NCBI GenBank assembly: GCA_964646375.1
Contig: CAZYEF010000002.1
Span: forward strand, 1-49,846
Direction: 5' to 3'
DNA length: 49,846 nucleotides
DNA from: an uncultured Nitrospiraceae bacterium
Lineage (GTDB): Bacteria > Nitrospirota > UBA9217
Below are positions 23,681 to 42,867 of the stretch, one piece after another. The first letter of the stretch is position 1, and every line of letters begins with the position of its first letter. The translations under genes were made by a program, and so were the position numbers. Under the pieces are notes generated by a model. That model made no database searches. It was given only the letters and a program-made list of their open reading frames with translations, and was not told the origin of the DNA.

Positions 23681-23722
23681 GGAATCCTCACTCGGTATTA
23701 ATAGTGCTGGTTTTTAGAACAA

Positions 23723-26051: not shown

Positions 26052-26744
26052 CTATTCTTTTCCAGGCGAGGAGTCTTTGCGCGGTGCTTCGCACGCCATG
26101 TGTCTGATCACCTTGCCTTTGACCATGTACACGACCATCTCGGCAATGTTTGTTGAGTGGTCCGCTATACGTTCCATGTATTTTGTGATGGCGGTAACGC
26201 GTATCGCCCGAGATATGGTTTGAGGGTCCCTCAGCATGAAGAGAAGAAGTTCATTAAATATCTGCTGGTTCAGATTGTCGACGAAATCGTCAGCGGCGCA
26301 CACCTGCATGGCGAGATCAGCGTCCCTCTTAAGGAAGGCATCGAGGCTGTCTTTGAGCATTTTCTGGGACGCCTCAGCCATGCGCGGCAGGTCAATATAG
26401 GGTTTGAGCGGCGGCTCATCGCACAGTTCCGTCACCCGCTCGCAGATGTCCACGGCCAGATCCCCCACGCGCTCAAGGTCCGTGATGATCTTGATGGCGG
26501 TCGTCACAAAGCGGAGATTGCTGCCGGTTGGCTGCCAGAGCGCGAGAAAACGGATGCATTCCTCCTCGATTTCAACGTCGTAGGTATTGATGATGGAATC
26601 TCCGTCGATTACCCGCCGTGCGAGGTCCCGATCGCGGTCCACCAGCGCCTTGATGGATTTTTTGATTGCATCCTCAACGGCAGCTCCCATTTTCAGTATT
26701 TTTTCCTTGAGCTTGGTGAGGTCCTGCTCTTTTTGTGTGGACAT
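26052..26744 (-). CDS. phoU: Phosphate signalling complex protein PhoU
   Basis: It has two PhoU repeats with the E(D)xxxD motifs (EEECIRFLAL..., ITDLERVGD; AITKYMERIADH). ATG at 26744 follows AAGGAG. The longer 279-aa ORF overlaps pstB. Confidence 0.9.
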   Translation of the reverse strand: MSTQKEQDLTKLKEKILKMGAAVEDAIKKSIKALVDRDRDLARRVIDGDSIINTYDVEIEEECIRFLALWQPTGSNLRFVTTAIKIITDLERVGDLAVDICERVTELCDEPPLKPYIDLPRMAEASQKMLKDSLDAFLKRDADLAMQVCAADDFVDNLNQQIFNELLLFMLRDPQTISRAIRVTAITKYMERIADHSTNIAEMVVYMVKGKVIRHMACEAPRKDSSPGKE

Positions 26745-26808
26745 ATGGTTCTCCTTCATTGATTCCGGCTGGAAACAGGCGTCACGCGTCCCGGTTTTTT
26801 CTCCGCAA

Positions 26809-27573
26809 TCATCCAAACCTTCCGGTAATGTAGTCGTCAGTCTGTTTTTTATCGGGGTTCGTGAATATTTTTTCGGTGGTTCCGTATTCAATAAGTTCCC
26901 CCATGTAGAGAAATCCCGTCATGTCGGAAACCCGGGCCGCCTGCTGCATGTTGTGCGTCACAATAATGATCGAAACGTCCTTTTTGAGGGTCACGACGAG
27001 TTCTTCTATCTTTGCTGTTGAGATAGGGTCCAGTGCCGACGTCGGTTCATCAAAGAGCAGAACCTCCGGTTCAACGGCAAGGGCACGCGCGATCACCAGC
27101 CGCTGCTGCTGTCCTCCCGAGAGCTCATAGGCGCTTGCATTCATTTTGTCACGGACCTCATTCCAGAGAACGGCGTTTTTAAGAGCTTGTTCGATCCGTC
27201 CGGTAAGCTCCCCTTTGTTTTTGATGCCCTTCAGTTTAAGACCGTAAGCAATATTATCGGCGATGGACATGGGGAACGGCGTGGGTTTCTGAAAGACCAT
27301 GCCGATTCTGCTTCGGAGACTGATGAGATCGACATCACCTGACAGGATATTGTTTCCCTGAAACAGGATTTCTCCTTCATACCGGTGGTTGGGGTAGAGG
27401 TCGTGCATCCGGTTGAAACACCGGAGAAGTGTTGTTTTTCCGCACCCTGACGGGCCGATAAGCGCGGTGACATTGTTTTTGTAAATCGGCAGTGAAATAT
27501 TCTGAAGCGCACGGACGTCTATACTGTAGTAGAAATCCAGCTTCCTGACCTCGATTTCTATGGTCGAGTTCAC
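26809..27573 (-). CDS. pstB: Phosphate ABC transporter ATP-binding protein PstB
   Basis: Walker A is GPSGCGKTT, the signature is LSGGQQQRL, Walker B is [14 protein letters not shown] at 27573 follows GGAGG and overlaps the pstA stop by 1 nt. Confidence 0.95.
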
Positions 27574-28412
27574 TATTTGTACCTCCACTTGAGAAGAAGT
27601 CTGCCAAGGATCGTCACCACAAGAATGAAAAGGGTAATGACGAATGAGGCGGCCCATGCCTGTTTATGCCAGTCATCGTAGGGCCCCATGGCAAACTGGA
27701 AAATGGTAACCGTCAGCGATGCAATCGGGCGGTTCATGTCCAGGGAAAAGAAATTGTTATTAAATGAGGTAAAGAGCAACGGCGCCGTTTCACCGGCCAC
27801 CCGGGCAATGGAGAGCAATATGCCGGTCAGAATTCCTGTGGCCGCCCCCCGGTAGACAACCTGGATAATCACCTTGTAGTACGGTGCTCCCAGGGCGAAT
27901 GCGGCTTCCCGCAGGGTCCAGGGAACCATGGACAGCATGTCTTCCGTGGTTCTCAGGACCACCGGAATCATGATTACGGCAAGGGCTACCGCACCGGCCC
28001 ATCCGCTGAAATGCCCCAGCGATCTTACGAGCAATGCATAAATGAATGTGCCGACGACAATGGAAGGAACGCTTACGATAATATCCGCCAGTACGCTGAT
28101 GGTGCGGGCGTAGCGGGTCCGTTTTGCATATTCCGCGAGAAAGGTCCCTCCCAGGACGCCGAGCGGCACGCCGATCAGTGTTGCGAATACCGTGATCAAG
28201 AGCTGGCCGACGAAGGCATGTCTGAGGCCACCGCCTGTTTCACCGGGAGGAACGGGGTCGTGGATAAAAAGGCTGATATTGAGCGACCCGATGCCGTTTA
28301 TGATGACATCGCCCAGGATAAAAATGAGCCAGAACAAGCCGGTTATCGCCGCCAGTGAACTGAGTGCGAGGGCTATAAAGCCTTCTAGTTTGCGTTTTTT
28401 TTCTATGTCCAT
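27573..28412 (-). CDS. pstA: Phosphate ABC transporter permease PstA
   Basis: It is a six-TM permease with the EAA-like loop [11 protein letters not shown] and follows pstC. Confidence 0.9.
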
Positions 28413-28453
28413 AGCGTTCGAAAAAAAAGAATGCCCGATTCTGCCCGGCGTGT

Positions 28454-29395
28454 CTATCTTGAGTATTTCTTTTCCGCCTTGATCAGGAACAGTTTCGCTA
28501 TTGCCAGTGTGATAAAACTCAGTAAAAACAGCACCAGCGCAAGATAAAAAAGGGCTGATAGATAGATATCATTGTCTGCTTCCGTAAATTCATTTGCCAG
28601 GGTGACGGTAATGGTCGCAGCCGCATCGAAAAATGATGTGGCGATTTTATGGTTGTTGCCGAGAACGAAAGCCACGGCCATGGTCTCACCAAGCGCCCTG
28701 CCGAGAGAGAGCACCACCCCGCCGAACACGCCCAATTTGGAGTAGGGGAGTACGATGTTTTTTACCACTTCCCATTGGGTTGCGCCTACGGCATAGGCGG
28801 ATTCCTTTACCACCGATGGTGTGAGATTGAATGAATCTCTGGCAATGCTGGCGGTGAATGGTATGATCATGATGCTCAGGATGACGCTTGCGGTCAGGAT
28901 GTCAATGCCGAGTGGAGTGCCGCGGAACAGTATCTCGAGTACAGGAACCCGTCCGATGGTGTTTTGGAGTGCTGGTTCTATATATTTGCTCATGATCGGT
29001 GCCAGCGTGAAAAGACCCCACATGCCGTAAATAATGCTTGGAATAGCGGCGAGCAGCTCGATTGCGATGCCGATGGGGCCTTTCAGGACATTTGGTGCAA
29101 TTTCCGTAACGAAGATTGCAATGCCGATCGCGGTGGGTACCGCAATGAGGAGCGAAAGTGCCGTCGTGATGAAGGTGCCATAAATATTCGTGGCCGCGCC
29201 GAAACTTTCCTTGACGGGGTTCCAGTCAGTGGATGTCAAAAAATTTATAATGCCGAATTTTTTTATGGCCGGAGATGATTCTTGAATCAGTATCCAGAAA
29301 ATACCGAGTATGATTAAAACTACCGAAAGCGATGCAACGGCAGTAATAACTGAGAATGCAAAGTCCCAGGGATTTTTTTTAGGTATAATTGCCAA
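28454..29395 (-). CDS. pstC: Phosphate ABC transporter permease PstC
   Basis: It is polytopic with the EAA-like loop VKESAYAVGATQWE and lies between pstS and pstA. Confidence 0.9.
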   Translation of the reverse strand: MAIIPKKNPWDFAFSVITAVASLSVVLIILGIFWILIQESSPAIKKFGIINFLTSTDWNPVKESFGAATNIYGTFITTALSLLIAVPTAIGIAIFVTEIAPNVLKGPIGIAIELLAAIPSIIYGMWGLFTLAPIMSKYIEPALQNTIGRVPVLEILFRGTPLGIDILTASVILSIMIIPFTASIARDSFNLTPSVVKESAYAVGATQWEVVKNIVLPYSKLGVFGGVVLSLGRALGETMAVAFVLGNNHKIATSFFDAAATITVTLANEFTEADNDIYLSALFYLALVLFLLSFITLAIAKLFLIKAEKKYSR

Positions 29396-29524
29396 TGAAC
29401 CTGACTCCTGTAAAAAAAGTCTGCAACTTAAGGGCCTGTCTGATAAGTAAAAAAAGGGCCAGATAGTTGATTATAGCTATCTGACCCGAGAGAGTCAAAC
29501 AGGGCTGTATTTGCGCTGCCGGGT

Positions 29525-30547
29525 TTACTGAATGCCGTTTGCTTTCCAGTATGCCTTGACTTTCTCCTGCAACGGCTTCGGCAGCGGGATATAAATCAAT
29601 TTCTTTGCTGTCTGGTTGCCGTTCGTATATGCCCAGTCAAAGAATTTTGCGGTCTTCGCATTTGCGGCTTTTTTGTCTTTTGCCATAAGGATAAAGGTCG
29701 CTCCGGCGATGGGCCATGAATTTTTTCCCGGAGAATTGGTAAGCCAGACATAGAAATCCTTTGCGGGATCAAAATTACCCGAGGCGGCTGCGTCTTCAAA
29801 GGATTCAAAAGTAGGTTCAACAAATTTGCCGGCAGGATTCTTCAGCATTACATATACCAGATTGTTTTGTTTAGCATAGGCGAATTCCACGTAGCCGATG
29901 GAATTGTTCGTCTGTTTTACATAATTAGCCACGCCTTCATTGCCCTTGCCGCCGATGCCTACGGGCCATGACACCGATTTCCCTTCACCGACCTTGGTCT
30001 TCCAGTCTGCGGAGGATTCAGCAAGATAGTGGGTGAAGATCGCCGTCGTGCCTGAGCCGTCCGAACGGTGTACTACCGTAATGTCGCCAGATGACAGGTT
30101 CAGGCCGGGATTAAGCTTTTTAATCTGCGCATCATCCCATTTTTTGATATCGCCGAGAAAAATTTTTGCCAAGACGGTGGAATCCAGCTTTAACTGGCCT
30201 GACTTGACGCCTTTGATATTAATGACCGGGGTGATGCCGCCGACAACGGTTGGGAATTGAATCAGATTGTCTTTTTTCAGCTTTGTTGATTCCAGCGGGT
30301 CGTCTGAAGCCCCGAAGTCCACGGTCCGTTCGACAATCTGACGCTGTCCCGCGCCGGATCCGACGGACTGATAGTTAAGCTTGGTTCCTGTTACCTTGTT
30401 GTATTCATGTGCCCATGCTGAATAGAGGGGTGCGGGGAAGGATGCACCGGCGCCGTTTAACGTTTCTTCTGCATGTCCTATGGCTGTCATTAACATAAAC
30501 GTCACCAACATTACTGCACTTAAAGTCAATATTGCGATTTTTTTCAT
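29525..30547 (-). CDS. pstS: Periplasmic phosphate-binding protein PstS
   Basis: It has a signal peptide, then GAGASFPAPLY, YQSVGSGAG and RSDGSGTT, the phosphate-binding blocks. A GGAGGAG SD is present. Confidence 0.92.
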   Translation of the reverse strand: MKKIAILTLSAVMLVTFMLMTAIGHAEETLNGAGASFPAPLYSAWAHEYNKVTGTKLNYQSVGSGAGQRQIVERTVDFGASDDPLESTKLKKDNLIQFPTVVGGITPVINIKGVKSGQLKLDSTVLAKIFLGDIKKWDDAQIKKLNPGLNLSSGDITVVHRSDGSGTTAIFTHYLAESSADWKTKVGEGKSVSWPVGIGGKGNEGVANYVKQTNNSIGYVEFAYAKQNNLVYVMLKNPAGKFVEPTFESFEDAAASGNFDPAKDFYVWLTNSPGKNSWPIAGATFILMAKDKKAANAKTAKFFDWAYTNGNQTAKKLIYIPLPKPLQEKVKAYWKANGIQ

Positions 30548-30582: not shown

Positions 30583-30627
30583 ACCATACTATTGAATTGT
30601 TACAATTATGTTACAGTTCCATGACAA
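30583..30627 (-). promoter_or_regulatory. Pho-box-like promoter of pstS
   Basis: In gene orientation: TTGTCAT ggaa CTGTAAC ataa TTGTAAC, 10 nt, then TATGGT. The heptamers are at 30621-30627, 30610-30616 and 30599-30605, exactly 11 bp apart. Confidence 0.6.
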
Positions 30628-30707
30628 TTGCATAAAAAAGATTTTAACTAGATATAATTGTATCACGCATCGGCGCGGACATGTGCTCTTCTTAGGAGCG
30701 CATGCCG

Positions 30708-31109
30708 TCATGCACAGCAGAGATAGAGATTAATATTTTGCCGGAGATTAGCGATGTCTCCCTTGCAAATATATCCCTGAACTTTGCATGCAGAAACGAT
30801 TTCCCGCAGACTGCATTCATCATTTGAGGAATAAAAGACAATCGGAACGTGATTCGCCTCATGATTGGCACGCAGCATTGCTGCAAGCTTGTCGCCTGAT
30901 ACCCCAGGCATATTTATGTCGAGCAGCACCAGATCCGGCTTTAACTCCAGTATGCGATTGACCGCGCCGAACCCGTTATGATGAGTAATTACCTCAATCC
31001 CTTCGTTTTCTACCAGCTCCTTGACAATATCGAGATGCATTTCATCGTCATCAACTACGAATATCCTTTTTTTAGTCTGGTTCTCTTTTTCATGTAAAAT
31101 AACATTCAT
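30708..31109 (-). CDS. Stand-alone response-regulator receiver domain protein
   Basis: RIFVVDDDEMHL, DLVLLDINMPGVSG, FYSSN and YICKG. It has no output domain. ATG at 31109 follows GGAGGAA. Confidence 0.85.
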   Translation of the reverse strand: MNVILHEKENQTKKRIFVVDDDEMHLDIVKELVENEGIEVITHHNGFGAVNRILELKPDLVLLDINMPGVSGDKLAAMLRANHEANHVPIVFYSSNDECSLREIVSACKVQGYICKGDIANLRQNINLYLCCA

Positions 31110-31140
31110 GGCAGAATTTTTTCCTCCAAAACTATCCCGT

Positions 31141-31536
31141 TCACACCGGCAGAGAGGGTTCCGCATGCGGCTGCAGCAGGATGCATCTGACTTTGCTTTT
31201 CAGTTCTCCGATACACCCCTTACAGATATAACCTTTTGCTCCATACCGCGCGGCGTAATCACGCAGGCTGTCTTCATCATTTGATGAATAGAAAATGAAC
31301 GGTGAATCACGCCAACGGAGCAATTTTGCCAATTGATCGCCGGAAAGCCCCGGCATGTTGATGTCGAGCAGTATGAGGTCCGGACGCAGTTCTTTCACCA
31401 GAGTCGTTATACCTATCCCATGGTTGCTTTTATGTGTGCACACATACCATTGCTCGTCCTGCAGCAGTTCACTGGTCGTATAAAGATGCAGTTCGTCATC
31501 ATCAATTACCAGTATTTTCTTTTTGTTCCTGTCCAT
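31141..31536 (-). CDS. Stand-alone response-regulator receiver domain protein (paralogue of 30708..31109)
   Basis: KILVIDDDELHL, DLILLDINMPGLSG, FYSSNDEDSL and YICKG. It overlaps the 3' end of the upstream kinase gene by 35 nt. Confidence 0.85.
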   Translation of the reverse strand: MDRNKKKILVIDDDELHLYTTSELLQDEQWYVCTHKSNHGIGITTLVKELRPDLILLDINMPGLSGDQLAKLLRWRDSPFIFYSSNDEDSLRDYAARYGAKGYICKGCIGELKSKVRCILLQPHAEPSLPV

Positions 31537-32734
31537 GGAGAAATATTTCCCGCCTTTCCTTGTTTATGTGGATCGGGATTGAGAGTGAAAACGTCGTTCC
31601 CCTGCCGAACGTGCTTGATACGCCTATTGATCCTCCGAGGAGACCGGCCAGATTCCTGCTGATTGTCAATCCAAGTCCGGTCCCCTCGTATTGCTTGGTT
31701 TTGGCGTCTTCTACCTGAGTAAAGGCCGTGAACAGATTGGCAAGATGTTCTTCCTTGATTCCGATGCCTGTATCGGCTATCGAAATTTCCAGGATATTGT
31801 CTTTTCTGAGCAAGCCCATTGTAATAGTGCCGGCTTCAGTGAATTTGGCTGCATTGCTTGCAAGGTTCGTGATAATCTGCCGCAATTTAACCGGGTCGGA
31901 AATAATAGTAATAGATTCGGCACAGAGGGTAATCACGACATTGACCGGTTTGTTGCCGACAAGAATCCGGGTTGTTTGAGCGATTTCTGTTATAAGGGCC
32001 GAAACATCGACGGGCTGACATAATACGGTCATTTTCCCGGCTTCAATTTTCGACAAATCGAGAATGTTTGTGATTATTGTCCTGAGATTTGTCGCGCTGG
32101 TAATCATAAACGAGAGACGTTCCTTAATTTGTTCAATGGAATTCTTTTCTGCCGCCATGCGGAGCAATTCCGCAAGGCCAATGATGGCATTGACGGGCGA
32201 CCGAAGTTCATGGGTAACATTGGCCAGAAACTGCGATTTTATCAGGCTTATTTTTTCAAGCTCCTGCGCGCGCGCATTTGCTATTTCCTTTTGAAGTATG
32301 TTGCTCGCAAGTGCGTTGCTTTGCTGAATTACCAGTTGCTTGATGGATAAAAGACCCCGATAAATACCGTTGTTCTGTGTGACGATGATTTCATCGTAAA
32401 TATCCTGTGCCGGCCGTTCAAGGGCCATATCAATGGCCTCGCTGAGCGGGGTATTATCAGGCACAATAAGTGGGTTTGTTTCCGCCAGCGTGATGATGGA
32501 ATGCTTCCCATAGAGTTCAAAACCGAACCTTCGGAAAAGTGTGAAAAGCAGCTTTGTTCTTGTGATGAGCCCTCTCGGTCTTTTTTCTTCCACAAGTGCA
32601 ATTGCCTCCAGCTCAGTAGTGCTGAAAAAACGTTCTGCGACGCCGGTTACGCTCGTATGTGGTGATGTCTGTTCGCCGGATATAATAAGCTTTCCCACGG
32701 GAAGCATGTTGTCCAGAACGATTTCCGATTGCAT
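31502..32734 (-). CDS. Cytoplasmic histidine kinase with an N-terminal CBS-pair-like sensor
   Basis: The N-terminal ~140 aa has two CBS-like units (AIALVEEKRPRGLITRTKLL; IIVTQNNGIYRGLLSIKQLV). H-box is THELRSPVNAIIGLAELL, N-box is NLASNAAKFT, G-boxes are DTGIGI and GTGLGL. No TM segments. Confidence 0.85.
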   Translation of the reverse strand: MQSEIVLDNMLPVGKLIISGEQTSPHTSVTGVAERFFSTTELEAIALVEEKRPRGLITRTKLLFTLFRRFGFELYGKHSIITLAETNPLIVPDNTPLSEAIDMALERPAQDIYDEIIVTQNNGIYRGLLSIKQLVIQQSNALASNILQKEIANARAQELEKISLIKSQFLANVTHELRSPVNAIIGLAELLRMAAEKNSIEQIKERLSFMITSATNLRTIITNILDLSKIEAGKMTVLCQPVDVSALITEIAQTTRILVGNKPVNVVITLCAESITIISDPVKLRQIITNLASNAAKFTEAGTITMGLLRKDNILEISIADTGIGIKEEHLANLFTAFTQVEDAKTKQYEGTGLGLTISRNLAGLLGGSIGVSSTFGRGTTFSLSIPIHINKERREIFLHGQEQKENTGN

Positions 32735-32826
32735 GGGACCTCCCTGCTTTGCTGCATTTGATAAATTCTGTTAGCTATGAGCGGTTTTAGCACATTGCCT
32801 GTATCTCTTTTTGCCGTGCAGCCGCG

Positions 32827-33945
32827 CTATTTACCGATGACATTCCCGAGAAGGGGATATCGATTCTCGTTTCCTGTGCGGCAGATGACCGTTTCCTGAA
32901 GAAATGTCAGTATGAACGTGCTTCCGAAACCGGGGCTGCTTGTCACCGTAATTTTCCCGCCCATGGATTCTGTGAGAACTTTCACTATGTAGAGACCAAG
33001 CCCGGCACCTTTTACTGCCTCGCTTCCTCCGGCACGGTAAAACTTCTCGAAGATTCTCGGTATTTCATCTTTGGATATTCCGCAGCCTTCGTCACGCAGG
33101 GTGATGTTTGTATGATTATCAAATACTTCAAAGCAAGCCCAGATTTTTCCGCCTTCACGGTTATATTTTATGGCATTTGAGAAAATGTTTATCAGCACCT
33201 GACGGAGCGCCGTTTTATTTGCCAGGACCGTAGTTTTCATGCTTTCCACAATGTGTATCTCAATATGTTTTCTTGCTGCTTGATCGTAAAAAAAGTCAAC
33301 AACTTCCCTTGTTATCGCGACAATATCCACAGGCTCGACCGGCAGTGGTTGGCGGTTTTTTTCAAGCTGACTGAGCAATGAGGCGTCTTTTAACAGGCTT
33401 TCCGCATGCAAGGCAATAGTGTTGATCATTTTGAGGTGCCGCTGCTCACCATTTTTTCTGAGGGCAAGCGACGAGAATCCGCTGATGGTGGTCAGCGAGT
33501 TTCCCATTTCATGAATGAAATACCGCAGCGAAGTTTCTTTTTCACGTTCGCTCGATTGAAGGTTCTTCAAAATACTGCGGCGCTCCATCTGTTTTCGTAT
33601 CTTAAGCATTAATTCTGCGACGGAAAAAGGTTTTGACATGTAATCGTCCGCACCGAGAGTGAGGCCTGTTATGCGGTCTTTTTCATCGGAGAGCGCCGTC
33701 AGCATGATAATTGGAATGGACTTCCAGGCGATATTGTTTTTCACGATGCGGCATACTTCCCAGCCGTTCAGGCCCGGCATCATAACGTCGAGAAGCAGCA
33801 AATCAGGAGGGCGGTTCCGCATTGCTTCAATTGTTTCTTTACCGTTGCGGACAACCAGTGTTCTGTAATTTTCTCTTTCCAGATTGTACTGTATTAATTT
33901 CGACAGATCGTCTTCATCGTCGGCAATAAGGATAAATTCGTTCAT
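32827..33945 (-). CDS. Hybrid protein: N-terminal receiver domain fused to a HisKA/HATPase kinase core
   Basis: The receiver has ILIADDEDD, DLLLLDVMMPGLNG, IIMLTALSDEKDRITGLTLGADDYMSKPF (OmpR/PhoB-like receiver pattern). Then comes H-box FIHEMGNSLTTISGF, NIFSNAIKYN, DEGCGI and GAGLGL. AAGGAG SD is present. Confidence 0.85.
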   Translation of the reverse strand: MNEFILIADDEDDLSKLIQYNLERENYRTLVVRNGKETIEAMRNRPPDLLLLDVMMPGLNGWEVCRIVKNNIAWKSIPIIMLTALSDEKDRITGLTLGADDYMSKPFSVAELMLKIRKQMERRSILKNLQSSEREKETSLRYFIHEMGNSLTTISGFSSLALRKNGEQRHLKMINTIALHAESLLKDASLLSQLEKNRQPLPVEPVDIVAITREVVDFFYDQAARKHIEIHIVESMKTTVLANKTALRQVLINIFSNAIKYNREGGKIWACFEVFDNHTNITLRDEGCGISKDEIPRIFEKFYRAGGSEAVKGAGLGLYIVKVLTESMGGKITVTSSPGFGSTFILTFLQETVICRTGNENRYPLLGNVIGK

Positions 33946-33966
33946 GATTGATGCTCCTTGGCTGAT

Positions 33967-34022
33967 ACTATCGCATGTCTTTATTACAGTATTGTTATGG
34001 TACTGTTAAATTTATGTTAAGC
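33967..34022 (-). promoter_or_regulatory. Pho-box-like promoter of the REC-HK hybrid gene
   Basis: In gene orientation: GCTTAAC, ATTTAAC, CCATAAC, CTGTAAT at 34016-34022, 34005-34011, 33994-34000 and 33983-33989 (11-bp phasing). Then 10 nt, then GATAGT; TAGTAT lies 2 nt further. Confidence 0.45.
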
Positions 34023-34272
34023 AAAAAATAATTGTATTTTGTAAAGACTTGATTTCAGGTGTTTATACGTGAGAGAAGGAACTGATTTCGGTAATTACCT
34101 GGATAGGGAATCTCTTGACTCCTGTCGAGGAAGGAGTGTAGTAAGCCGTGGGAGGTTGCGTTCTCCGAGGGAACCCCCGCTTCCTATCGGAGATTGATAC
34201 ATTCCTTGCAACAGAAAATTCGAAGATTTCCGTCAGGAGCGGCAGGAGGGGGCTCTATTCATCATTGCGTAA

Positions 34273-35115
34273 TCAACGATACTCCGGACTCGACGGATGG
34301 TCTGTATATTCGACGGGCAGTTCCACTTCAGCTATGGTTCCTTCACCAAATTTGCTCGAAATTATCATGGCGCCGTCCAAAGTCTTTAAATGCTTCTGGA
34401 CCATTTTAATGCCTGATAGCGGCGTTTTGGATCGTCGTCCGGTTTGTTTCAACCGTGCCGGCTCGGATTGTGTGAGCAGTGTTTTAATTTGTTCTGCTGT
34501 CATGCCGATACCGGTATCGGTAATAGTAAAACGGATTCGGTTCTTATCTTTATAAAGAATGATGGCAACTCTGCCATGGTTCGTATATTTGGCGGCATTG
34601 GCGCAGAGTTCTGTAACAATCTGCTTGATTGTAAAACGGTTCGAAAAAACAAACACCGGGCACGGTTAGGAAATATACGTGACTTTTACAGGTTTACTTC
34701 TTACCTGCAGTTGTATTCTTTGAACTATTTCCTGTAACAGCGCGTCGATGTCGAAAATACAATATTCAAAGGCATCTGTGGCTGGCTCCGGATTATTTGA
34801 GTTAACAAGAATTGACAGGGCTTCAGCAAAGTTTGTTGTCTTTATCTTGAGAAGAGCGAACCTGCGCTCAAGGCTTTCAATGTCTTTGGTTACATACGCT
34901 TCTCTCATCAGGTCCCCTACGGCGAGGATTTCATATAGAAAATATCCCAGGTCCCTGGTGGCATCATGAAGTAAAGGGACTTTTTTAAAATCTGAGTATT
35001 TCGACGTCTGGTTATTTGCTTTTAACGATTCAGCTGTTTGAGCAAAATGGAGCAACATGTTTTTATGCGCAGGAATTTTCCCCGAGGCAAGAGACTGTCC
35101 TTGTTCTGTAATCAT
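34273..35115 (-). pseudogene. Histidine-kinase-like (GHKL ATPase) gene interrupted by a single in-frame TAA
   Basis: ORFs 34666..35115 and 34273..34656 are in the same frame. Read-through gives ...KPVKVTYIS*PCPVFVFSNRFTIKQIVTELCANAAKYT. The TAA at 34668-34666 falls just before the N-box. DTGIGM is present and the G2 region is degenerate. GGAGGG SD lies before 35115. Confidence 0.6.
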
Positions 35116-35165
35116 AATTCCCTCCGCGTTTTAAACCTCGACCAATAGCCTGGATGTGGCTGATT

Positions 35166-37019
35166 TTAGGCACACGGTGCCAAAAGCTTATTGCTCATTG
35201 TTTCATGATAGGTGGTAAATTTTAACGCTCCTTCTTTGCCAAAATACCGTTCTCGCATTTTAGGATCTGTTTGCATTAAATCAACAATGATCAGACCGTC
35301 AAGCACGTAACCAAATGCCGGGTCCACATTAAATCCGACGATGCGTCCTCCGAGCTTAAGATATTGCTTTAAAAGGATCGGAATGCCTTTCCGGTCTTCT
35401 TCGATGCAGGATATCAGGTTGGAACAATCATCGGAATCGTCCTTTAGCATGCGCACAATGCCATCAGTGTCCCATTTTCGCATGCCTTTTGAACGAAATG
35501 GTTTTTTCGGCTGGACGAATTCGGCAAGATCGGTCTGGTATCGGTTTGCTGTCAGATAATCGACCATGAGCTGCTTTGACAATGGTTGATATTCACGAGT
35601 GATGCTTACCGGGCCGAACAGCGTTCTATAGTGCGGATGCGCGACCAGGAATTGCGCAATTCCCTTCCAGAGCAGCAGAAGAGGAGTATAGGATTTTTGA
35701 TATTCAGGACGTACAAATGAGCGCCCCAATTCCAGCGCCGGTCCCATGTGTTCCAGAAAACCGGATTTATAATGGAAGAGTGTGCTGGTGTAAAGACCTT
35801 GAAGCCCCTGTGTATTGACAAGTTCATCTGTTTTGCCGAGACGATAGGCACCTACTACCTCACGGGTCTCCCGGTTCCATATAAAAAGATGAACATAGGT
35901 TGCATCGTATCGGTCTCTATCCAGCGATTTTCCCGTTCCTTCACCCACGGCACGGAATGTTTTTTCCCGTAAGCGGCAGATTTCAGTCAGAAGGCAGGGA
36001 ATTTGATGACCTTTGGCATAAAAAACCATGAGGTTGCCGTTCTCAATTAAAAGCTGGTCGGCCGGCAACAGGCTGATTTCATCGGCCATGCGGCTTGGAT
36101 TCTGAGCAGGTATGATTGGTTTTTCGTTTTTAGTTTTTATGATAGGTAGCAACGGTGATGTATTTTCCTTCCTGGTGTGATTATTTCTTAACTCGAGAAG
36201 ATACGTACGGAGCCTGAGATATCTGGTTACATCATCGTCCCCGTCGAATTCGTTTAATTTTTCTACGGGAATCAATTCTCCTACACGTACCTGTATTTTT
36301 TTATGCTTTTTATTAAAAAGTTCATTTGGCAGCATGGCGGTCCGCAGCAGCGGATGTACCATTCCCGCTACATGGAATGCTGCGCTGTTTGTTCCGCGAA
36401 AGAAGACCGGGAGCACTGGGGTTGATGTGATTTTGCTGATGCGGGCAATGCTTGTGCTCCAGTCCGGGTCGGTGATTGCGCCTTTTTGGACATTGAAATG
36501 TGAAACTTCTCCGGCTGGAAATACGACCAGCATTCCGCCTTTTTTCAACCATTGAATGCATTCTCTGACAGGTCTGATATTGTCCCTGATTGATGTGACA
36601 GTATTGAAAGGATTTACGGAAATCAGCAGATCACGCATTTCCGGAATGTATTTCAGGAGATAATTTGCTATGAACTTCACGTCGCTTCGTACCGATCGGA
36701 GAAGAGTTGCAAGGATGATGCCTTCAATACCGCCGAAAGGGTGGTTCGCGACAACAAGAACGGGACCTTTCTGGAAATTGATCCGTTTTCGATCTGTTTC
36801 AGTAATGTCATAAGACACATTGAGTCGTTCAAGGGCTTTTTCAGGGAAAGAACGATCGTCTTTCATCGTGGTAATATCAGCATATGTCCGATTCAAGCGC
36901 GGAAACGCCAGAAAATGTTCCAAGGGGCCTTTTACCAGTGAAAAAAGCTTGTTTTGCAGTGGATCCTTAAAATCGAGAGACAGGTTGAAAATTCGATTTG
37001 GCTGGTTCTGCTGCAGCAT
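35166..37019 (-). CDS. Bifunctional acyltransferase, OlsF-like: N-terminal PlsC-type O-acyltransferase plus C-terminal OlsB/GNAT-type N-acyltransferase (aminolipid synthase candidate)
   Basis: The N-domain has VVANHPFGGIEG and FPAGEVS. The C-domain has LREKTFRAVGEGTGKSLDRDRYD..HLFIWN....VVGAYRL, typical of OlsB-like N-acyltransferases. This domain order matches what I recall for OlsF. Confidence 0.65.
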   Translation of the reverse strand: MLQQNQPNRIFNLSLDFKDPLQNKLFSLVKGPLEHFLAFPRLNRTYADITTMKDDRSFPEKALERLNVSYDITETDRKRINFQKGPVLVVANHPFGGIEGIILATLLRSVRSDVKFIANYLLKYIPEMRDLLISVNPFNTVTSIRDNIRPVRECIQWLKKGGMLVVFPAGEVSHFNVQKGAITDPDWSTSIARISKITSTPVLPVFFRGTNSAAFHVAGMVHPLLRTAMLPNELFNKKHKKIQVRVGELIPVEKLNEFDGDDDVTRYLRLRTYLLELRNNHTRKENTSPLLPIIKTKNEKPIIPAQNPSRMADEISLLPADQLLIENGNLMVFYAKGHQIPCLLTEICRLREKTFRAVGEGTGKSLDRDRYDATYVHLFIWNRETREVVGAYRLGKTDELVNTQGLQGLYTSTLFHYKSGFLEHMGPALELGRSFVRPEYQKSYTPLLLLWKGIAQFLVAHPHYRTLFGPVSITREYQPLSKQLMVDYLTANRYQTDLAEFVQPKKPFRSKGMRKWDTDGIVRMLKDDSDDCSNLISCIEEDRKGIPILLKQYLKLGGRIVGFNVDPAFGYVLDGLIIVDLMQTDPKMRERYFGKEGALKFTTYHETMSNKLLAPCA

Positions 37020-37088
37020 AGGTCGCTCCTTTTATTCAAAAGTAATATTTAAAAGCACAACATAGTTTCAAAGGACAAGGTCTTGTAC

Positions 37089-38330
37089 TTATGCAAAACG
37101 TTCTCGTATGACGTTTGTGATTCGGTATCTCCATGACCAGATTCCGGTTTCCGGGCAAGGCATCAGCCGTGAATCTTTGCCGATATGGTAACGGTTTCCA
37201 CGCCACGCCACTGTTGAACTCAGAATAGGCACGAACCAGATGCCGCCTATTATTAAATCCTTTACAGGACTCAGGAAGTAAGTAAACAGTGATTGTCTAT
37301 GCAAGTCCTTCTTGACGGCAGACATAGCAATAATTTTTCCAGTCAATGAATCAGTAAAAATTTTCATTAATCCGATACCGCCTGCAAATGACAGCGTTGT
37401 GCTTGATGGACCGTTGAAAATAACCGGCAGGACCGAAATAAATACAGGATTGGAGAGAAGCTCGGAAATATACTTATAACCGCCGATTTTCCATCTGAGT
37501 TTTCCCCATCTCGTGTGACGGTTCAGGAATCGTTTGATGTCCCAGTATTCATTAACATTGGTGATCAGATAATTTGACAAAACCACCCGTTTGCCTATGC
37601 GGGCCATTTCTCTGCCGATAATATAATCTTCCGCCAGAATATCTTTGAATGCGCCAAATCCACCGAGTTTTTCGAGGTCTGTTTTGCTCATGAGCATTGA
37701 TTTGCCGATAACACACGGCATCCGCAAAAACCGATCGAGAAAACTGACGCTGCCGATGATAAAGGAGTTCAGATGAAGATTTTCCAGAAGCGCGCCGATG
37801 CTGCGGCCGCCGGTTCCGTGGATCATATTGCTTACAAGGCCAACCGACGAATCACGCGTGTGTTTTGCAATTTCCCGGAGATAGTTTTTATCTACCATGA
37901 CATTACTGTCGCTGATGAGGATGTGTGAATGGCGGGAAGCTCTGTACGCCGGGATAAGGTTGTTTACTTTCGGGTTGAGTCCTGTATTACACTTTTCGAC
38001 GACAATTCTGATTTTTTTGTCCGCATATTTGTCCTTGATTTTTGCCACCACTTTATATGCTGGATCATTGCGGTCCTGAAGCGCAAAGACGACTTCATAT
38101 TCGGAATAGTCTTGAGTGCAGAAACTGGCAAGGTTGTCAAAAAGATTGTCGTCAAGTCCTTTGAGCGGTTTCAATATGGAAATGGGCGGAAGGGATTTCA
38201 GGTCATTTTGCGAAGGGAGATCGGCGGGTCTGCGCTGTCTTTTGAGAAGCGCATATACAGCCGCCGTCTGAAGCAGGCAAAGCAGAATGCCCACTATTGA
38301 AATTATTGCGCAGATGTGGAATAAGGTCAT
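37089..38330 (-). CDS. GT21-type (ceramide glucosyltransferase-like) membrane glycosyltransferase, a candidate diacylglycerol glycosyltransferase
   Basis: It has an N-terminal TM, ISILKPLKGLDDNL, ISDSNV, AEDY and RHTRWGKLRW (the (Q/R)xxRW motif). ATG at 38330 follows GGAGG. The longer 456-aa ORF would overlap the PHP gene. Confidence 0.8.
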   Translation of the reverse strand: MTLFHICAIISIVGILLCLLQTAAVYALLKRQRRPADLPSQNDLKSLPPISILKPLKGLDDNLFDNLASFCTQDYSEYEVVFALQDRNDPAYKVVAKIKDKYADKKIRIVVEKCNTGLNPKVNNLIPAYRASRHSHILISDSNVMVDKNYLREIAKHTRDSSVGLVSNMIHGTGGRSIGALLENLHLNSFIIGSVSFLDRFLRMPCVIGKSMLMSKTDLEKLGGFGAFKDILAEDYIIGREMARIGKRVVLSNYLITNVNEYWDIKRFLNRHTRWGKLRWKIGGYKYISELLSNPVFISVLPVIFNGPSSTTLSFAGGIGLMKIFTDSLTGKIIAMSAVKKDLHRQSLFTYFLSPVKDLIIGGIWFVPILSSTVAWRGNRYHIGKDSRLMPCPETGIWSWRYRITNVIRERFA

Positions 38331-38380
38331 GGTATGCCTCCATCGGATATGTTGTAGGGAATAAAATGAGCTTTCATCAG

Positions 38381-39073
38381 TCAATTCCTGAAGAGTGTGA
38401 TCGCCACACCCCTGTTGTGTTTGATGCAGTTTTTGACGCAGTCTACAGTTTTTTCGCAATTGAGCAGCGTTTTCCAGGAGTAGAGATGATGCGGTTTATG
38501 AAAATCGCTGTTGGCGACGTAGGGATATTTTTTCAGACTGATTACGTTAAATACATCATCCCGGTTGGCTATTTCCCATGCGTCTATGTATTTGGCATAT
38601 TTATCTCTGTTGTTCCAGAGAAAGAGGGTATCCTGGGTAGTGGGGTCAGGAGTGTGATGAGGGTGGCAAGCAACGATCAGGGCATTCTGTTTGCGCGCTT
38701 CTATGAAAATTTCTTCGCAATTCAAGCAGGCGGGAATGAATTCCTTTATATCAAGCACTAGGAAGTGGGCTGATTCATCTTCTGATAAGTAATTTTTACT
38801 TATTTCCACACCCGGGACCACCAGCATCCCGTATTTGTTCATGGCCCGTTCTGCTTCTTCACGGATGGCAAGAAGATATTCGTTGAAGTTGTCCCGTTTC
38901 ACGGAAAGATTAAACTTTTGCGCAAACTTTCCGATTACATTGTCACCGTTCACCACGTGGTCCGTAATGGCAATGACATCAAAGCCCGCTTGTCCAAAGA
39001 GATCAATCGTTTTTCTCATTTCCACCGACCCGTCGGAGTAGGTGGTGTGAATATGAAAATCACACAGTATCAT
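38381..39073 (-). CDS. PHP-domain metal-dependent phosphoesterase
   Basis: MILCDFHIHTTYSDGS, AITDHV, ...HFLVL..., ACHPHH and NSDFH give the His/Asp metal-ligand pattern of PHP domains. Confidence 0.85.
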   Translation of the reverse strand: MILCDFHIHTTYSDGSVEMRKTIDLFGQAGFDVIAITDHVVNGDNVIGKFAQKFNLSVKRDNFNEYLLAIREEAERAMNKYGMLVVPGVEISKNYLSEDESAHFLVLDIKEFIPACLNCEEIFIEARKQNALIVACHPHHTPDPTTQDTLFLWNNRDKYAKYIDAWEIANRDDVFNVISLKKYPYVANSDFHKPHHLYSWKTLLNCEKTVDCVKNCIKHNRGVAITLFRN

Positions 39074-39081
39074 TGTGTTCG

Positions 39082-39126
39082 AATATACGCTTTTAATATT
39101 ACGGGCAGATTACGGGCAGATTAAAT
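39082..39126 (-). promoter_or_regulatory. Perfect 11-bp tandem repeat forming a Pho-box-like internal promoter ahead of the PHP gene
   Basis: On the plus strand: ATTACGGGCAG ATTACGGGCAG ATTA (39098-39123). In gene orientation: ATTTAAT, CCGTAAT, CCGTAAT, 10 nt, TATATT (39087-39082), then 8 nt to the ATG at 39073. Confidence 0.45.
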
Positions 39127-39131
39127 TCCTG

Positions 39132-40418
39132 TTACAATTGTGACCGGCTGTGAATAAGGTAGGAATAGTACGCAGCGGCGCTTGTTGGATGGCGCTGAAG
39201 TGTTTTGAAATCCACGCGATACAGGCCGAACCGGGTGTCAAGTCCGTTGAGCCATTCGTAATTATCAATTAACGTCCAATAGTAATATCCCCGTATGTCA
39301 AGACCGTTTTTCAGACATCGCTCCACCATGTCGACGTGCCGTTTCATATATTTCACTTTTTCCTCGGAATCATGTGTCGCAATACCGTTTTCAGTGATAA
39401 TCAGCGGTACCTGAAGGCGGGAAGCATACCTGAGGACTTTTTCAATTCCACGCGGATGAATTTCCCAACCAATATTCGTAAGTCCGTGACCGTCTATGTC
39501 ATGATGCCGGAGTTCGACTCCCATTCTTTTGAACGGGTTGAAACGAAGATGAATGCGGGTATAGTAGTTCACGCCGAAAAAATCGAGTTTGCCTTTTATC
39601 GGTACTTCGATTTCAATTGGACGGGAGAAGGGGAACTTGATGACAAATATTCCGGTTTTGAAGGCATCTATGATCGAATGATTATAGAAAAAGTTTGCCG
39701 TTTTTTTGAGAACCCGGTCCAGTGGATTCCATTTTTTCCAGGGAGCAAAAACGGACATATTATGAGACAAGCTTACCTGGGCGCCCGGGACATGCTCATG
39801 GATGATATCATACGCTTTTCCATGACAGGTAAAAATATTTTTCAAAGCGTGAAGAGATTTTGGCACATCCTGGATTCCCGGGGGCGTGCAGCCCTCTAGG
39901 TAGCCGCCCAGCAGAATAACGTACGGCTCGTTGAATGTTATCCAATAACGCACATCCCTGAGCGTTGTAACCATTTTCTCCGCAAAACGCAGAAATTTTT
40001 CCACAGATGCCCTTCGGTGCCAGGGAGATCGACCGATTAACCAGGATGGATTTGTAAAATGATGCAGTGTCACCATAGGCTCGATATTGTAGCTTCGGAG
40101 AATATTGATGATGTCCTGATAGTGTGCAATGGCATCCTCGTTCCAAACACCTTCCTGCGGCTGAATTCTGCTCCACTCTATGGAGAAGCGACAACTGTTG
40201 ACGCCCAATTCCTTCAGCAGATGCAGGTCCTGACGATAGCGATTGTAATGGTCCGTTATGTCCGGAGTCTCTTCAATCTCGGGGTCCCAGGTCGTCCAGT
40301 CCGCGTGCGGTGAACCTTCTATCTGAAATGCTGACGTGGCAATTCCCCATTGGAAGTCAGATGGGAAAACGTTTTTTGCCTCTCCGCGAACCGTGCTCTT
40401 TTCCGATGTTATCTCCAA
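39132..40418 (-). CDS. Glycoside hydrolase family 1 (beta-glucosidase-like), cytoplasmic
   Basis: FQWGIATSAFQIEG, the acid/base motif ITFNEPYV and the nucleophile motif IITENGIA are present. There is no signal peptide. It has a TTG start and no SD. Confidence 0.9.
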   Translation of the reverse strand: MEITSEKSTVRGEAKNVFPSDFQWGIATSAFQIEGSPHADWTTWDPEIEETPDITDHYNRYRQDLHLLKELGVNSCRFSIEWSRIQPQEGVWNEDAIAHYQDIINILRSYNIEPMVTLHHFTNPSWLIGRSPWHRRASVEKFLRFAEKMVTTLRDVRYWITFNEPYVILLGGYLEGCTPPGIQDVPKSLHALKNIFTCHGKAYDIIHEHVPGAQVSLSHNMSVFAPWKKWNPLDRVLKKTANFFYNHSIIDAFKTGIFVIKFPFSRPIEIEVPIKGKLDFFGVNYYTRIHLRFNPFKRMGVELRHHDIDGHGLTNIGWEIHPRGIEKVLRYASRLQVPLIITENGIATHDSEEKVKYMKRHVDMVERCLKNGLDIRGYYYWTLIDNYEWLNGLDTRFGLYRVDFKTLQRHPTSAAAYYSYLIHSRSQL

Positions 40419-40525
40419 TAAAGCACCATGACAAGCAGTCCCAGTAACGCAATTGCGAACAAGACTGTTTCTTCGTATTTATTTGCTGATTTTCCATCAA
40501 TATTATTATTCATCCTGTTATCCAT
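40409..40525 (-). CDS. Possible 34-38 aa single-TM small protein translationally coupled between psiE and the GH1 gene
   Basis: It reads MDNRMNNNIDGKSANKYEETVLFAIALLGLLVMVLYWR*. Its ATG at 40525 lies 1 nt after the psiE TGA (TGATATG). Its TAA (40411-40409) overlaps the GH1 TTG start (TTGGAGATAA). It is below the ORF-track size cutoff. Confidence 0.3.
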   Translation of the reverse strand: MDNRMNNNIDGKSANKYEETVLFAIALLGLLVMVLYWR

Positions 40526-40526
40526 A

Positions 40527-40949
40527 TCATTTCTGTCCTGATTCCAGATATTTTTTTGGTGAAAAAACTACTGCCAGCGTTCTGAGACATCCTATCACCA
40601 GTATCAGCGCGGAGAGAGCGAAAATCATTGGGGTCTGCAGTGTGTGCTCATAAAGGCCGACCATAACTTCTCTCAGCACAAATACCAGTGCGGCATCGGT
40701 AATAAAGGTTATTTTTAAGCGGTGCACGCTGAAATATTCTATGATGCTTCTCAGGAGTTCTATGACGATAAACATGGAAAGAATGTTCGTTACCATCATG
40801 TCAAATGCCGCTCCGATGCTCTGACTCCCAAAAACTGCGCGCAAATCAAGCACTAGTCGCGCAATTCCCATTAGCAAGGCAAGAACCACCAGAGGGATCA
40901 GCAGTTTGATCATATTGTCGACAATTTTCCCGAAATAATCTAAAATCAA
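40527..40949 (-). CDS. psiE: Phosphate-starvation-inducible protein PsiE family (4-TM membrane protein)
   Basis: The size, TM pattern and the IVIELLRSIIEYF...ITDAALVFVLREV region fit PsiE. I place the start at TTG 40949, which follows AGGAG plus 5 nt. The ORF-track start at 40991 has no SD and would lie upstream of the predicted -10. Confidence 0.8.
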   Translation of the reverse strand: MILDYFGKIVDNMIKLLIPLVVLALLMGIARLVLDLRAVFGSQSIGAAFDMMVTNILSMFIVIELLRSIIEYFSVHRLKITFITDAALVFVLREVMVGLYEHTLQTPMIFALSALILVIGCLRTLAVVFSPKKYLESGQK

Positions 40950-40979
40950 GTTTTCTCCTGTTGCAAAATGATTGCTGTC

Positions 40980-41024
40980 ATATTGATACAAGGTTATTAC
41001 GGGAACATTACAGTCGTGTTAAAA
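40980..41024 (-). promoter_or_regulatory. Pho-box-like promoter of the psiE operon
   Basis: In gene orientation: TTTTAAC, CTGTAAT, CCGTAAT at 41018-41024, 41007-41013 and 40996-41002. Then 10 nt, then CAATAT (40985-40980). Confidence 0.5.
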
Positions 41025-41226
41025 GTGTGTGAAAAGCTTTTGATATTCTGCGGGACGGCGAGATATAAAAAACAGATGGATCACTTCCTGCGGCAGAGAA
41101 TCCCCGGACTCCTTGACGGGAAAGTAATATGGCAAGTCGCGGAAGGCCACATTTATCAAGAGAATCGCCGGTTTCTAGCGGATTGGACTCTGCTGATGCT
41201 TTTAATGTGGCTCTTTAGTAACCAAG

Positions 41227-41271
41227 TTGTAACAAATTTTTAATTGTACCGTAACATATCTCTACTACAAT
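41227..41271 (+). promoter_or_regulatory. Pho-box-like promoter of the divergent kinase-family gene
   Basis: TTGTAAC (41227-41233), TTTTAAT (41238-41244), CCGTAAC (41249-41255), 10 nt, then TACAAT (41266-41271). Confidence 0.45.
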
Positions 41272-41374: not shown

Positions 41375-41959
41375 GTGAACCAATTAGGCAGAAAACTATA
41401 CCATCTTCTGGGCGGTTTGGCCCTCGTCTCGCTCTATTATGTTATCGGCAGAGATCGTGCGCTTTTGTTTTACGCGGCATTGTTTGTTGTCGTCCTGATT
41501 CTGGACCTTATTCGTCTCAAACTACCGCCGGTCAACCGGTTTATTCATGACAGATTTCAGAATTTTATCCGGGTAAGTGAAAAACGTAAGATTACCGGCA
41601 CAGCTTCCTATATTTTGGGAATTGGACTGTCTTTTTACTTCTACCGTTCGGATATCGCCACGCTGGCAGTTTGTTTTCTTGCTTTTGGTGATGTTGCTGC
41701 TACTACAGTTGGCGAGAGATATGGTAAAACAAAAATTGGAAAGAAAAGTTTAGAAGGAAGCATCGCTTTTGTCGCAGCCGCAATATCGGGAGGGATGCTG
41801 CTCTCGCTGGCGGGCATACCTGTCATGTATGGACTTGTCGTAACTGGTGCGTTGATTGCCGCGGGAGTGGAACTGATACCACTTCCGGTGAACGATAACC
41901 TGTTAATACCCCTTATATCAGGAGGCGCGATGTCCTTGATTCTCATGATAATTGGGTAA
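41375..41959 (+). CDS. CTP-dependent polyprenol/phytol/diacylglycerol kinase-family membrane protein (dolichol-kinase-like, CTP_transf_1 superfamily)
   Basis: It is polytopic. FGDVAATTVGERYGKTKIGKKSLEGSIAFV matches the GD..A..VG..(F/Y)G...KS.EGS motif of this family. It has a GTG start and no clear SD. Confidence 0.72.
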   Translation: MNQLGRKLYHLLGGLALVSLYYVIGRDRALLFYAALFVVVLILDLIRLKLPPVNRFIHDRFQNFIRVSEKRKITGTASYILGIGLSFYFYRSDIATLAVCFLAFGDVAATTVGERYGKTKIGKKSLEGSIAFVAAAISGGMLLSLAGIPVMYGLVVTGALIAAGVELIPLPVNDNLLIPLISGGAMSLILMIIG

Positions 41960-42613: not shown

Positions 42614-42832
42614 TGCCGTTTTTTTGCGCCGAATAAACCTGGAAACCATGCAAAGTTTTCTTTGGTTGCGGTTCTTGCCGGCGACTTTGCTGTGATCCGC
42701 ATTTTTAAGCCTCTGCGGCATACCCCGGTTGCTGAGGAGTGCAGTAAGGCGGGGAAACGCTTTTTTCGAGAAGCTTCTACTCAATCAACCCGTTAACCCC
42801 CGTGCAATTTTGCTGGAATTTCAGTCTTTTTG

Positions 42833-42867
42833 TTTGCATAATAAAGGCGATTTTGATATTATGCAAA
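42833..42867. repeat. Perfect 11-bp inverted repeat TTTGCATAATA / TATTATGCAAA with a 13-nt spacer
   Basis: Read directly: arms at 42833-42843 and 42857-42867. It lies inside a 570-bp non-coding stretch and has no flanking U-run. Confidence 0.85.

Follow-up and report, generated by a model that had tools for sequence, protein, structure and literature searches.

Phased heptamer arrays before five promoters of an uncultured Nitrospirota bacterium as predicted Pho boxes

Five promoters in a 49,846-bp stretch of DNA from an uncultured Nitrospirota bacterium (contig CAZYEF010000002.1; the whole stretch is called the window below) are preceded by arrays of short heptamers repeated at a constant distance, and two of the genes that follow are pstS and psiE, which raises the question of whether these arrays are the operators of a phosphate-starvation (Pho) regulon and how they compare with the Pho boxes described in other bacteria. 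An initial annotation of the window had proposed that they are. The analysis reported here leads us to the view that the five arrays are very probably Pho boxes, predicted operators for a PhoB/PhoP-type (OmpR-family) phosphate-starvation regulator of this Nitrospirota, a reading that was supported in every sequence-level test to which it was put. Literature searches combining Nitrospirota with the Pho regulon found no description, and searches for TGTAAC-type Pho boxes returned nothing relevant; as far as these searches show, the element is of a known type, not previously described in this lineage.

Phased arrays at five promoters

A search of both strands of the whole window for three nnnTAAY heptamers spaced 11 bp apart, made with a regular expression, returned only four matches, at 41216-41255 (+), 41024-40996 (-), 39137-39098 (-) and 34022-33983 (-), which lie respectively before the gene of a 194-amino-acid (aa) membrane protein (called kinase-like below), psiE, the gene of a PHP-domain phosphoesterase, and that of a receiver-histidine kinase hybrid (REC-HK). 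The fifth site, pstS at 30638-30599 (-), contains one TCAT unit. Regular expression and alignment together recover all five promoters that the initial annotation had listed, the arrays are exclusive to them in the window, and the five intergenic sites with phased heptamers are confirmed as a real observation (Table 1).

When the sites are aligned on their last heptamer, four phased units are found at all five promoters, 20 heptamers in total. The earlier count of 16 had overlooked the fourth upstream unit at four sites (TTTTTAT at pstS, TTGTAAC at PHP, TTTTCAC at psiE and TAGTAAC at the kinase-like gene); its statement that the phasing is exact stands, since the distance from unit to unit is 11 nt throughout. 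Each array is oriented toward its downstream gene, in agreement with the earlier reading that all units run in one direction, and the gap of 10 nt between the last heptamer and the proposed -10 hexamer (TATGGT, GATAGT, TATATT, CAATAT or TACAAT) was recovered by re-measurement at the five sites and found likewise at their orthologues. That the sites have no recognisable -35 also holds, the best match to TTGACA in a search 16-18 nt upstream of the five -10s reaching at most 3 of 6 positions. A generic sigma-70 promoter scan found no promoter that uses the five -10 hexamers, and its only match in the region (34020..33991, TTAACA-18-AACAAT) is composed of the array repeats themselves.

The unit consensus is YYKTAAY, mostly with A as the next base. 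Position 4 is T and position 6 is A in every one of the 20 units and position 3 is G in 12, with TGTAA as the core in 11 units, TTTAA in five and TGTCA in one (TTGTCAT of pstS), and each heptamer holds 6.4 bits of information. The 4-nt spacers are 66% A+T, a modest bias relative to the 52-55% or so of the surrounding region, with A favoured at spacer positions 1 and 4. Unit 1 of the PHP array and the stop codon of the GH1 gene upstream overlap. At the other end of that promoter, the -10 hexamer ends 8 nt before the ATG (7-8 nt in two close relatives, L001 and L028) and there is no Shine-Dalgarno sequence, from which a leaderless PHP mRNA is predicted. The psiE start was moved from the mechanical open reading frame (ORF) start at 40991 to a TTG at 40949 that is preceded by GGAG and gives a protein of the same length, 140 aa, as in the relative L159; this start and the spacing between the PHP -10 and its ATG both fit the proposed -10 elements.

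How often would such arrays arise by chance? In 500 dinucleotide-preserving shuffles of the window, 0.034 loci with three phased TAAY units were expected vs four observed, and 0.010 loci with four phased T[AC]AY units were expected, again vs four observed. A four-unit weight matrix scored the five sites at 27-33 bits, and nothing in the rest of the window reached 12 bits except phase-shifted shadows of these same sites; in second-order Markov simulations the maximum score averaged 10 bits, with a 95th percentile of 15.6. As controls, 487 kb of unrelated Bacteroidota DNA (about 50% GC) contained a single match of 16 bits or more, which stayed under 20, and 62 kb of more distant Nitrospirota DNA contained no match of at least 16 bits. 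By a weight matrix and shuffled controls of the kind that the initial annotation had suggested, the phased motif lies far above random expectation in the window.

Conservation and wider occurrence of the arrays

The OlsF-like protein encoded in the window is 84% identical to those of L001, a metagenome-assembled genome (MAG) of the Nitrospiraceae, and of L028, a closed Nitrospirota MAG chromosome (OY760142.1, 3.26 Mb); further homologues are labelled Nitrospirota by NCBI, and the source organism is a member of this phylum. In L001 (identical to L159) and L028, all five arrays are found at the orthologous promoters, in the same register, with the same 10-nt offset and a conserved -10. Identity between the window and these two relatives is 94% at heptamer positions and 92% at the -10 hexamers, 75% in the 10-nt gap, 60% in the 4-nt spacers and about 50% in the flanks, a pattern that reads as the footprint of a protein-binding site rather than of a tandem repeat. 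An array also precedes the REC-HK orthologues (51-55% identical) of L040, L138, L164, L166 and L167, and the PHP array of L166 is weaker, at 18.9 bits. No arrays were found at the relatives of the kinase-like gene in three more distant Nitrospirota (L160, L161 and L162, around 6000-11450), where this dolichol-kinase-like gene stands last in an epimerase/class-I/II aminotransferase/acetyltransferase-like operon and a convergent PAP2 gene is found beside it; Pho control of the dolichol-kinase-like gene in the lineage of the window looks like lineage-specific rewiring.

Four long contigs of distant Nitrospirota (L164-L167, 84 kb) were picked by their REC-HK homologues, 51-55% identical, with the motif ignored. 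Their gene order is largely shared, running (GH1) / (PHP) / GT21 / OlsF / HATPase / REC-HK / histidine kinase (HK) / receiver (REC) / pstSCAB-phoU / (arnT), with L167 devoid of the lipid genes. On these 84 kb the window-derived matrix found 17 arrays of at least 16 bits vs 0.02 in simulations; 16 are intergenic and directed at the next gene, and the seventeenth (L167 14912-14873, minus strand) is the reverse-complement shadow of a pstS array. The genes that carry them are pstS in all four loci, REC-HK in three, PHP in two, GH1 once, porins twice and a few small or unannotated ORFs. A TAnnnT hexamer lies exactly 10 nt downstream of 13 of the 16 gene-proximal arrays; two pstS arrays, whose best register is one unit off, have TATAAA at the -10 position and one further array has TATAAC. 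The arrays at L164 2430-2469 and L166 4557-4596 are those before the porin genes (Porin_4 / Porin_1), an arrangement reminiscent of the phosphate-starvation porin PhoE of Escherichia coli. In L167, an IS605 OrfB/TnpB-type (Cas12f-like) gene at 13202-14530 (-) lies between the receiver genes and pstS, whose array is intact.

Public metagenome contigs were also scanned with the motif alone, as TNAY-n4-YYKTAAY-n4-YYKTAAY-n4-YYGTAAY-n11-ANNNT, which gave at least 120 loci. About half of the listed matches were 11-bp satellites such as (TTGTAATACAT)n, found in L058, L065, L084, L090, L131, L136, L154 and about 50 others listed; these are long, perfect and mostly on AT-rich contigs, and are unrelated to Pho boxes. 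Their removal left 65 matches with 61 first downstream ORFs. Among the matches listed, 15 of these 61 encode PBP_like_2 proteins (the PstS family), and the downstream ORFs further include three Phosphoesterase, two Na/Pi cotransporter, one PHO4 and one type-I phosphodiesterase (Phosphodiest) genes, together with two REC-HK orthologues (55% identity) and one PHP orthologue (81%). On the unrelated contig L121, arrays at 6089-6128 and 10162-10201 precede, respectively, an operon for diacylglycerol kinase, PAP2 and monogalactosyldiacylglycerol synthase and a phnF/phnD phosphonate operon; on L109, arrays are found before pstS and the pst genes that follow it. The motif thus predicts phosphate genes well beyond the source lineage and, because it stands upstream of phosphate genes in the unrelated L121, a YYKTAAY-type Pho box appears to be widespread outside Nitrospirota. 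A separate observation concerns L015, a Bacteroidota contig fetched through its OlsF homologue, where CTGTAAC-aaac-CTGTAAC-attt-TATTAAT occurs around position 226 (-) near the contig end; it may be a Bacteroidota Pho box close to the OlsF gene.

Likeness to known Pho boxes and competing readings

A PHO box consists of two or more 11-nt direct-repeat units, each with seven conserved and four less conserved bases (PMC4415409, PMC4447250), on which the effector domains of PhoB dimers bind head-to-tail and then contact sigma-70 (PMC4415409, PMC4447250, PMC3348028). The window arrays share with the E. coli Pho box the 7-bp direct repeats, the 4-bp spacers and the 11-bp period; the A/T-richness of spacers and flanks that serves minor-groove contact in Pho boxes shows in the window spacers as a modest bias. 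The Pho box of E. coli is located 10 bp upstream of the -10, as described by Makino and colleagues, a distance that we verified on the pstS promoter of E. coli K-12, which reads CTGTCAT-aaaa-CTGTCAT-attc-CTTACAT-ataa-CTGTCAC, 10 nt, TATTTT in the genome. Like the window sites, this promoter has four units oriented toward the gene, the last of which ends 10 nt before the -10, and no -35, so that the earlier equation of the architecture with that of the E. coli Pho box holds to the point of an identical layout; in E. coli, too, a Pho element precedes both pstS and psiE. Scored with the window matrix, its CTTACAT reaches 0.5 bits and the other three heptamers 6.6-6.8 bits. A difference is that many E. 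coli promoters hold a single two-unit box, whereas four units occur at all five promoters here. Two units, the least that a Pho box has, serve one dimer, and the number is usually even.

In Bacillus subtilis, according to PMC11870197 (citing Eder et al. 1999), the PhoP site has four repeats like TT(A/T/C)ACA at a periodicity of 11 bp, which lie upstream of the -10 and replace the -35. The likeness lies in the four repeats, their periodicity and the missing -35, and, one register over, many units in the window read (T/G)TAACA, near TT(A/T/C)ACA; the promoter-proximal units here differ in being CCGTAAT-like, or GTAAT(A/C) one register over. Bacillus tolerates spacers of 5 +/- 2 bp, and the spacing in the window is rigidly 11 bp. 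The cyanobacterial SphR boxes, at least three tandem CTTAACCT repeats of 8 bp with a 3-bp linker upstream of pst, sphX and phoA (PMC1906773), have in common with the window arrays the 11-bp period, a tandem of three units or more and a YTTAAY core. They differ in that position 3 here prefers G, as in E. coli, that the cyanobacterial CCT tail is absent here, and that their offsets range from -48 to -303 (PMC1906773), vs a fixed 10 nt from the -10 in the window. The Nitrospirota consensus YYKTAAY(A) is intermediate, its CTGT being that of E. coli and its TAAC(A) that of Bacillus and cyanobacteria.

The analysis shows the motif, its geometry, that it is not random, its conservation and its association with phosphate genes; we infer the nature of the cognate binder, activation upon its binding and phosphate as the signal. 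Under phosphate limitation, a phosphorylated PhoB-family regulator, encoded outside the window, would bind the four units as two tandem dimers and, by analogy with E. coli PhoB, its proximal protomer at the position of the missing -35 would recruit a sigma-70-type RNA polymerase through sigma region 4. The predicted outputs are high-affinity uptake by pstSCAB-phoU; a soluble signalling operon of REC-HK, CBS-HK and two REC genes; replacement of phospholipids by phosphorus-free ornithine lipids and glycolipids through OlsF and GT21, with the PHP phosphoesterase perhaps recycling head-group phosphate; psiE, perhaps with GH1; and the dolichol-kinase-like membrane protein. At low phosphate, Vibrio, Serratia and Desulfovibrio require or induce OlsF and a glycosyltransferase (PMC12186959, PMC5193443), and the window resembles such Pho-regulated lipid remodelling (OlsF or OlsBA with Agt/Pgt, in Vibrio, Serratia, Desulfovibrio and rhizobia) in placing an OlsF homologue and a glycolipid-type glycosyltransferase under a predicted phosphate-starvation regulator; it differs in that they form one operon with a PHP-domain phosphoesterase and are clustered with pstSCAB-phoU.

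Several points weigh against the arrays being Pho boxes. Their core is that of YYKTAAY (TGTAA or TTTAA) rather than the CTGTCAT consensus of E. coli with its major-groove core TGTCA, a different consensus in an element that would work like the E. coli Pho box, and the exact TT(A/T/C)ACA of B. subtilis occurs in four of the 20 units, several others (GTAACA) being one base off. The weight matrix was trained on the five sites that it scores in the window, and the independent evidence accordingly consists of the conservation, the motif-only scan and the protein-anchored loci. Of these, the scan chose its loci by the pattern, which makes their motif content a matter of construction and leaves the identity of the downstream genes as its independent part, and the close relationship between L001 and L028 means that P-values for conservation overcount independent events, plain as the size of the effect is. 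Finally, Pfam and NCBIfam searches found no OmpR/PhoB-family DNA-binding regulator (Trans_reg_C) among the window ORFs of size or in seven related Nitrospirota loci.

On the last point, the E. coli-type arrangement differs in that, in this Nitrospirota, phoBR does not adjoin pst. A full-length phoB-like gene was found on 11 of the motif-bearing metagenome contigs among those listed (with E. coli PhoB as query and identities that are approximate), that on L104 being closest to the mycobacterial phosphate regulator RegX3. Elsewhere in the window, at 1599-2780 (+), lies an orphan soluble histidine kinase of 393 aa with HisKA and HATPase domains and no transmembrane-like segment; its best NCBIfam match, the phosphate kinase PnpS, is far under the cutoff of that model, no response regulator adjoins it, and it is preceded by 703 bp of non-coding DNA.

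There is a slight chance of another reading, in which the arrays are operators of some other OmpR-family or tandem-binding regulator whose signal is another one, such as stress of the envelope, of lipids or of general starvation, and which controls pstS and psiE incidentally. For it speak that the searches of the window and the related loci found no regulator gene, that many members of the OmpR family bind direct repeats lying 10-11 bp apart (PMC4832192), and that several of the targets are membrane or lipid genes. Against it, pstS shows the highest conservation among Pho-regulon members (PMC4415409) and has an array in every lineage examined, genes for phosphate uptake and scavenging dominate the listed motif-only matches, with phoB-like genes alongside, and the arrays have the same geometry as the pstS promoter of E. 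coli. Slimmer still is the prospect that the arrays are repressor operators, at which a regulator lying across the -35 position blocks RNA polymerase and turns the genes down. The sites do overlap the core promoter, and members of the PhoP and PhoB families repress some promoters (PMC4415409, PMC11870197), but promoters devoid of a -35 would be weak if no activator were present, activated Pho promoters have the same position, orientation and 10-nt offset, and the targets are starvation-induced functions. That the arrays arose by chance in AT-rich intergenic DNA, or are a tandem repeat of 11 bp or curved DNA with no specific protein partner, as the low information of single heptamers and the satellites among the scan matches might suggest, is effectively refuted by the excess over shuffled sequence, by the nearly empty control DNA, by the restriction of the arrays to sites upstream of genes and in gene orientation, and by spacers that vary inside arrays and diverge among species while the heptamers stay fixed, the opposite of what a satellite would do.

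If the arrays are Pho boxes, they reveal no new regulatory principle; what goes beyond the textbook is the uniform four-unit architecture, the TGTAA core, the gathering of five promoters in a 16-kb island and a predicted Pho-controlled REC-HK/CBS-HK/REC/REC module beside pst. They would chart, at the level of sequence, the phosphate-starvation regulon of an uncultured Nitrospirota lineage in which there is no genetics, and provide an operator model (four YYKTAAY units at 11 bp, 10 nt, -10) usable on MAGs to predict responses to phosphate limitation. The predicted swap of phospholipids for ornithine lipids and glycolipids under scarce phosphate bears on lipid biomarkers in sediments and groundwater, and a conserved two-component module, probably Pho-controlled, next to pst is brought to attention.

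Genes of the phosphate island and its surroundings

The five predicted Pho promoters are clustered within a 16-kb island conserved across a Nitrospirota clade, with the layout GH1 / PHP-GT21-OlsF / HATPase / REC-HK, CBS-HK and one or two REC genes / pstSCAB-phoU (Table 1). That pstS and psiE are among the targets, as first annotated, is confirmed by their Pfam and NCBIfam matches. The label of the fifth target as a kinase-family gene is less secure: the array upstream of it stands, and the name derives solely from the "dolichol kinase" that JGI assigns to its relatives, the protein having no Pfam or NCBIfam match. Scans of the whole window against Rfam and for tRNAs gave no matches, and thus no known RNA element in the 100-nt leader of this gene. 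To judge by spacing, psiE may be co-transcribed with GH1, and the HATPase-only gene with the OlsF operon. At the position of the in-frame TAA in the HATPase-only gene, the 280-aa orthologue of L159 has Ser (VKVTYIS*PCP vs VKVTYISSPCP); the stop may stem from a sequencing error or be a nonsense mutation, in which case the gene would be a pseudogene.

Table 1. Arrays, proposed -10 hexamers and genes of the phosphate island in the window (spacers in lower case).
Feature	Position	Strand	Sequence or domain matches	Remarks
pstS array	30599..30638	-	TTTTTAT gcaa TTGTCAT ggaa CTGTAAC ataa TTGTAAC	30.9 bits; kept in L001 and L028
REC-HK operon array	33983..34022	-	GCTTAAC ataa ATTTAAC agta CCATAAC aata CTGTAAT	27.0 bits; kept in L028 and L001
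PHP operon array	39098..39137	-	TTGTAAC agga ATTTAAT ctgc CCGTAAT ctgc CCGTAAT	32.9 bits; kept in L001, L028, L138 and L165
psiE array	40996..41035	-	TTTTCAC acac TTTTAAC acga CTGTAAT gttc CCGTAAT	32.6 bits; kept in L001 and L028, spacers diverged
Kinase-like gene array	41216..41255	+	TAGTAAC caag TTGTAAC aaat TTTTAAT tgta CCGTAAC	33.4 bits; kept in L001 and L028
pstS -10	30583..30588	-	TATGGT	10 nt 3' of last heptamer; TATTGT, TATGTT in relatives
REC-HK -10	33967..33972	-	GATAGT	10 nt 3' of last heptamer
PHP -10	39082..39087	-	TATATT	identical in L001 and L028
psiE -10	40980..40985	-	CAATAT	identical in L001 and L028
Kinase-like gene -10	41266..41271	+	TACAAT	TATAAT in relatives
pstS-pstC-pstA-pstB-phoU operon	26052..30547	-	PstS 1e-118, PhoU 2e-67, BPD_transp_1 twice, ABC_tran	Pfam/NCBIfam
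Four-gene two-component operon	30708..33945	-	REC-HK hybrid (372 aa), CBS-HisKA-HATPase kinase (410 aa), single-domain receivers (131 and 152 aa)	Pfam, NCBIfam
PHP/GT21/OlsF operon and HATPase-only gene	34273..39073	-		Pfam/NCBIfam
HATPase-only gene	34273-35115	-		in-frame TAA at 34666-34668
OlsF-like bifunctional acyltransferase	35166-37019	-	NCBIfam OlsF 2e-126	
GT21 glycosyltransferase	37089-38459	-	Glyco_transf_21 9e-44	
PHP phosphoesterase	38381-39073	-	PHP 1e-7	
GH1 beta-glucosidase	39132-40418	-	GH1 4e-90	follows psiE on the same strand
psiE	40527-40949	-	PsiE Pfam 2e-10	140 aa, from TTG 40949
Polytopic membrane protein (kinase-like)	41375..41959	+		194 aa; JGI labels relatives "dolichol kinase"

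The two-component module lies between the lipid operon and pstS across distant Nitrospirota (L164-L167, around 10001-13149) as it does in the window. Pfam and NCBIfam found no DNA-binding domain in the window operon, and neither of its kinases has a transmembrane-like segment. We entertain, as a tentative and rather unlikely idea, that this clade-conserved phosphate island is centred on a lineage-specific phosphate-signalling relay, in which the Pho-driven soluble kinase/receiver module is not a passenger; the module could, for instance, stand in for a membrane PhoR or feed back on it, or link intracellular adenylate or energy status to the Pho response through its CBS pair.

Beyond the kinase-like gene, 1,066 bp at 42614-43679 between the genes of an sll1863-family stress protein and a radical-SAM protein contain no convincing ORF and no Pfam or Rfam match; a 119-aa ORF is called there in L159. 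On the other side of the island, directly after phoU, an arn-type lipid A aminoarabinose operon occupies 18574-25788 (-), with ArnT, an SMR/EamA protein, ArnB-, ArnC- and ArnA-like proteins and a deacetylase. ArnT also follows phoU in L165 (18105-21092) and, behind a transposase gene, in L167 (21071-21128). The 263-bp gap between phoU and arn (25789-26051) contains no array, and read-through into arn from the pst operon at low phosphate is conceivable.

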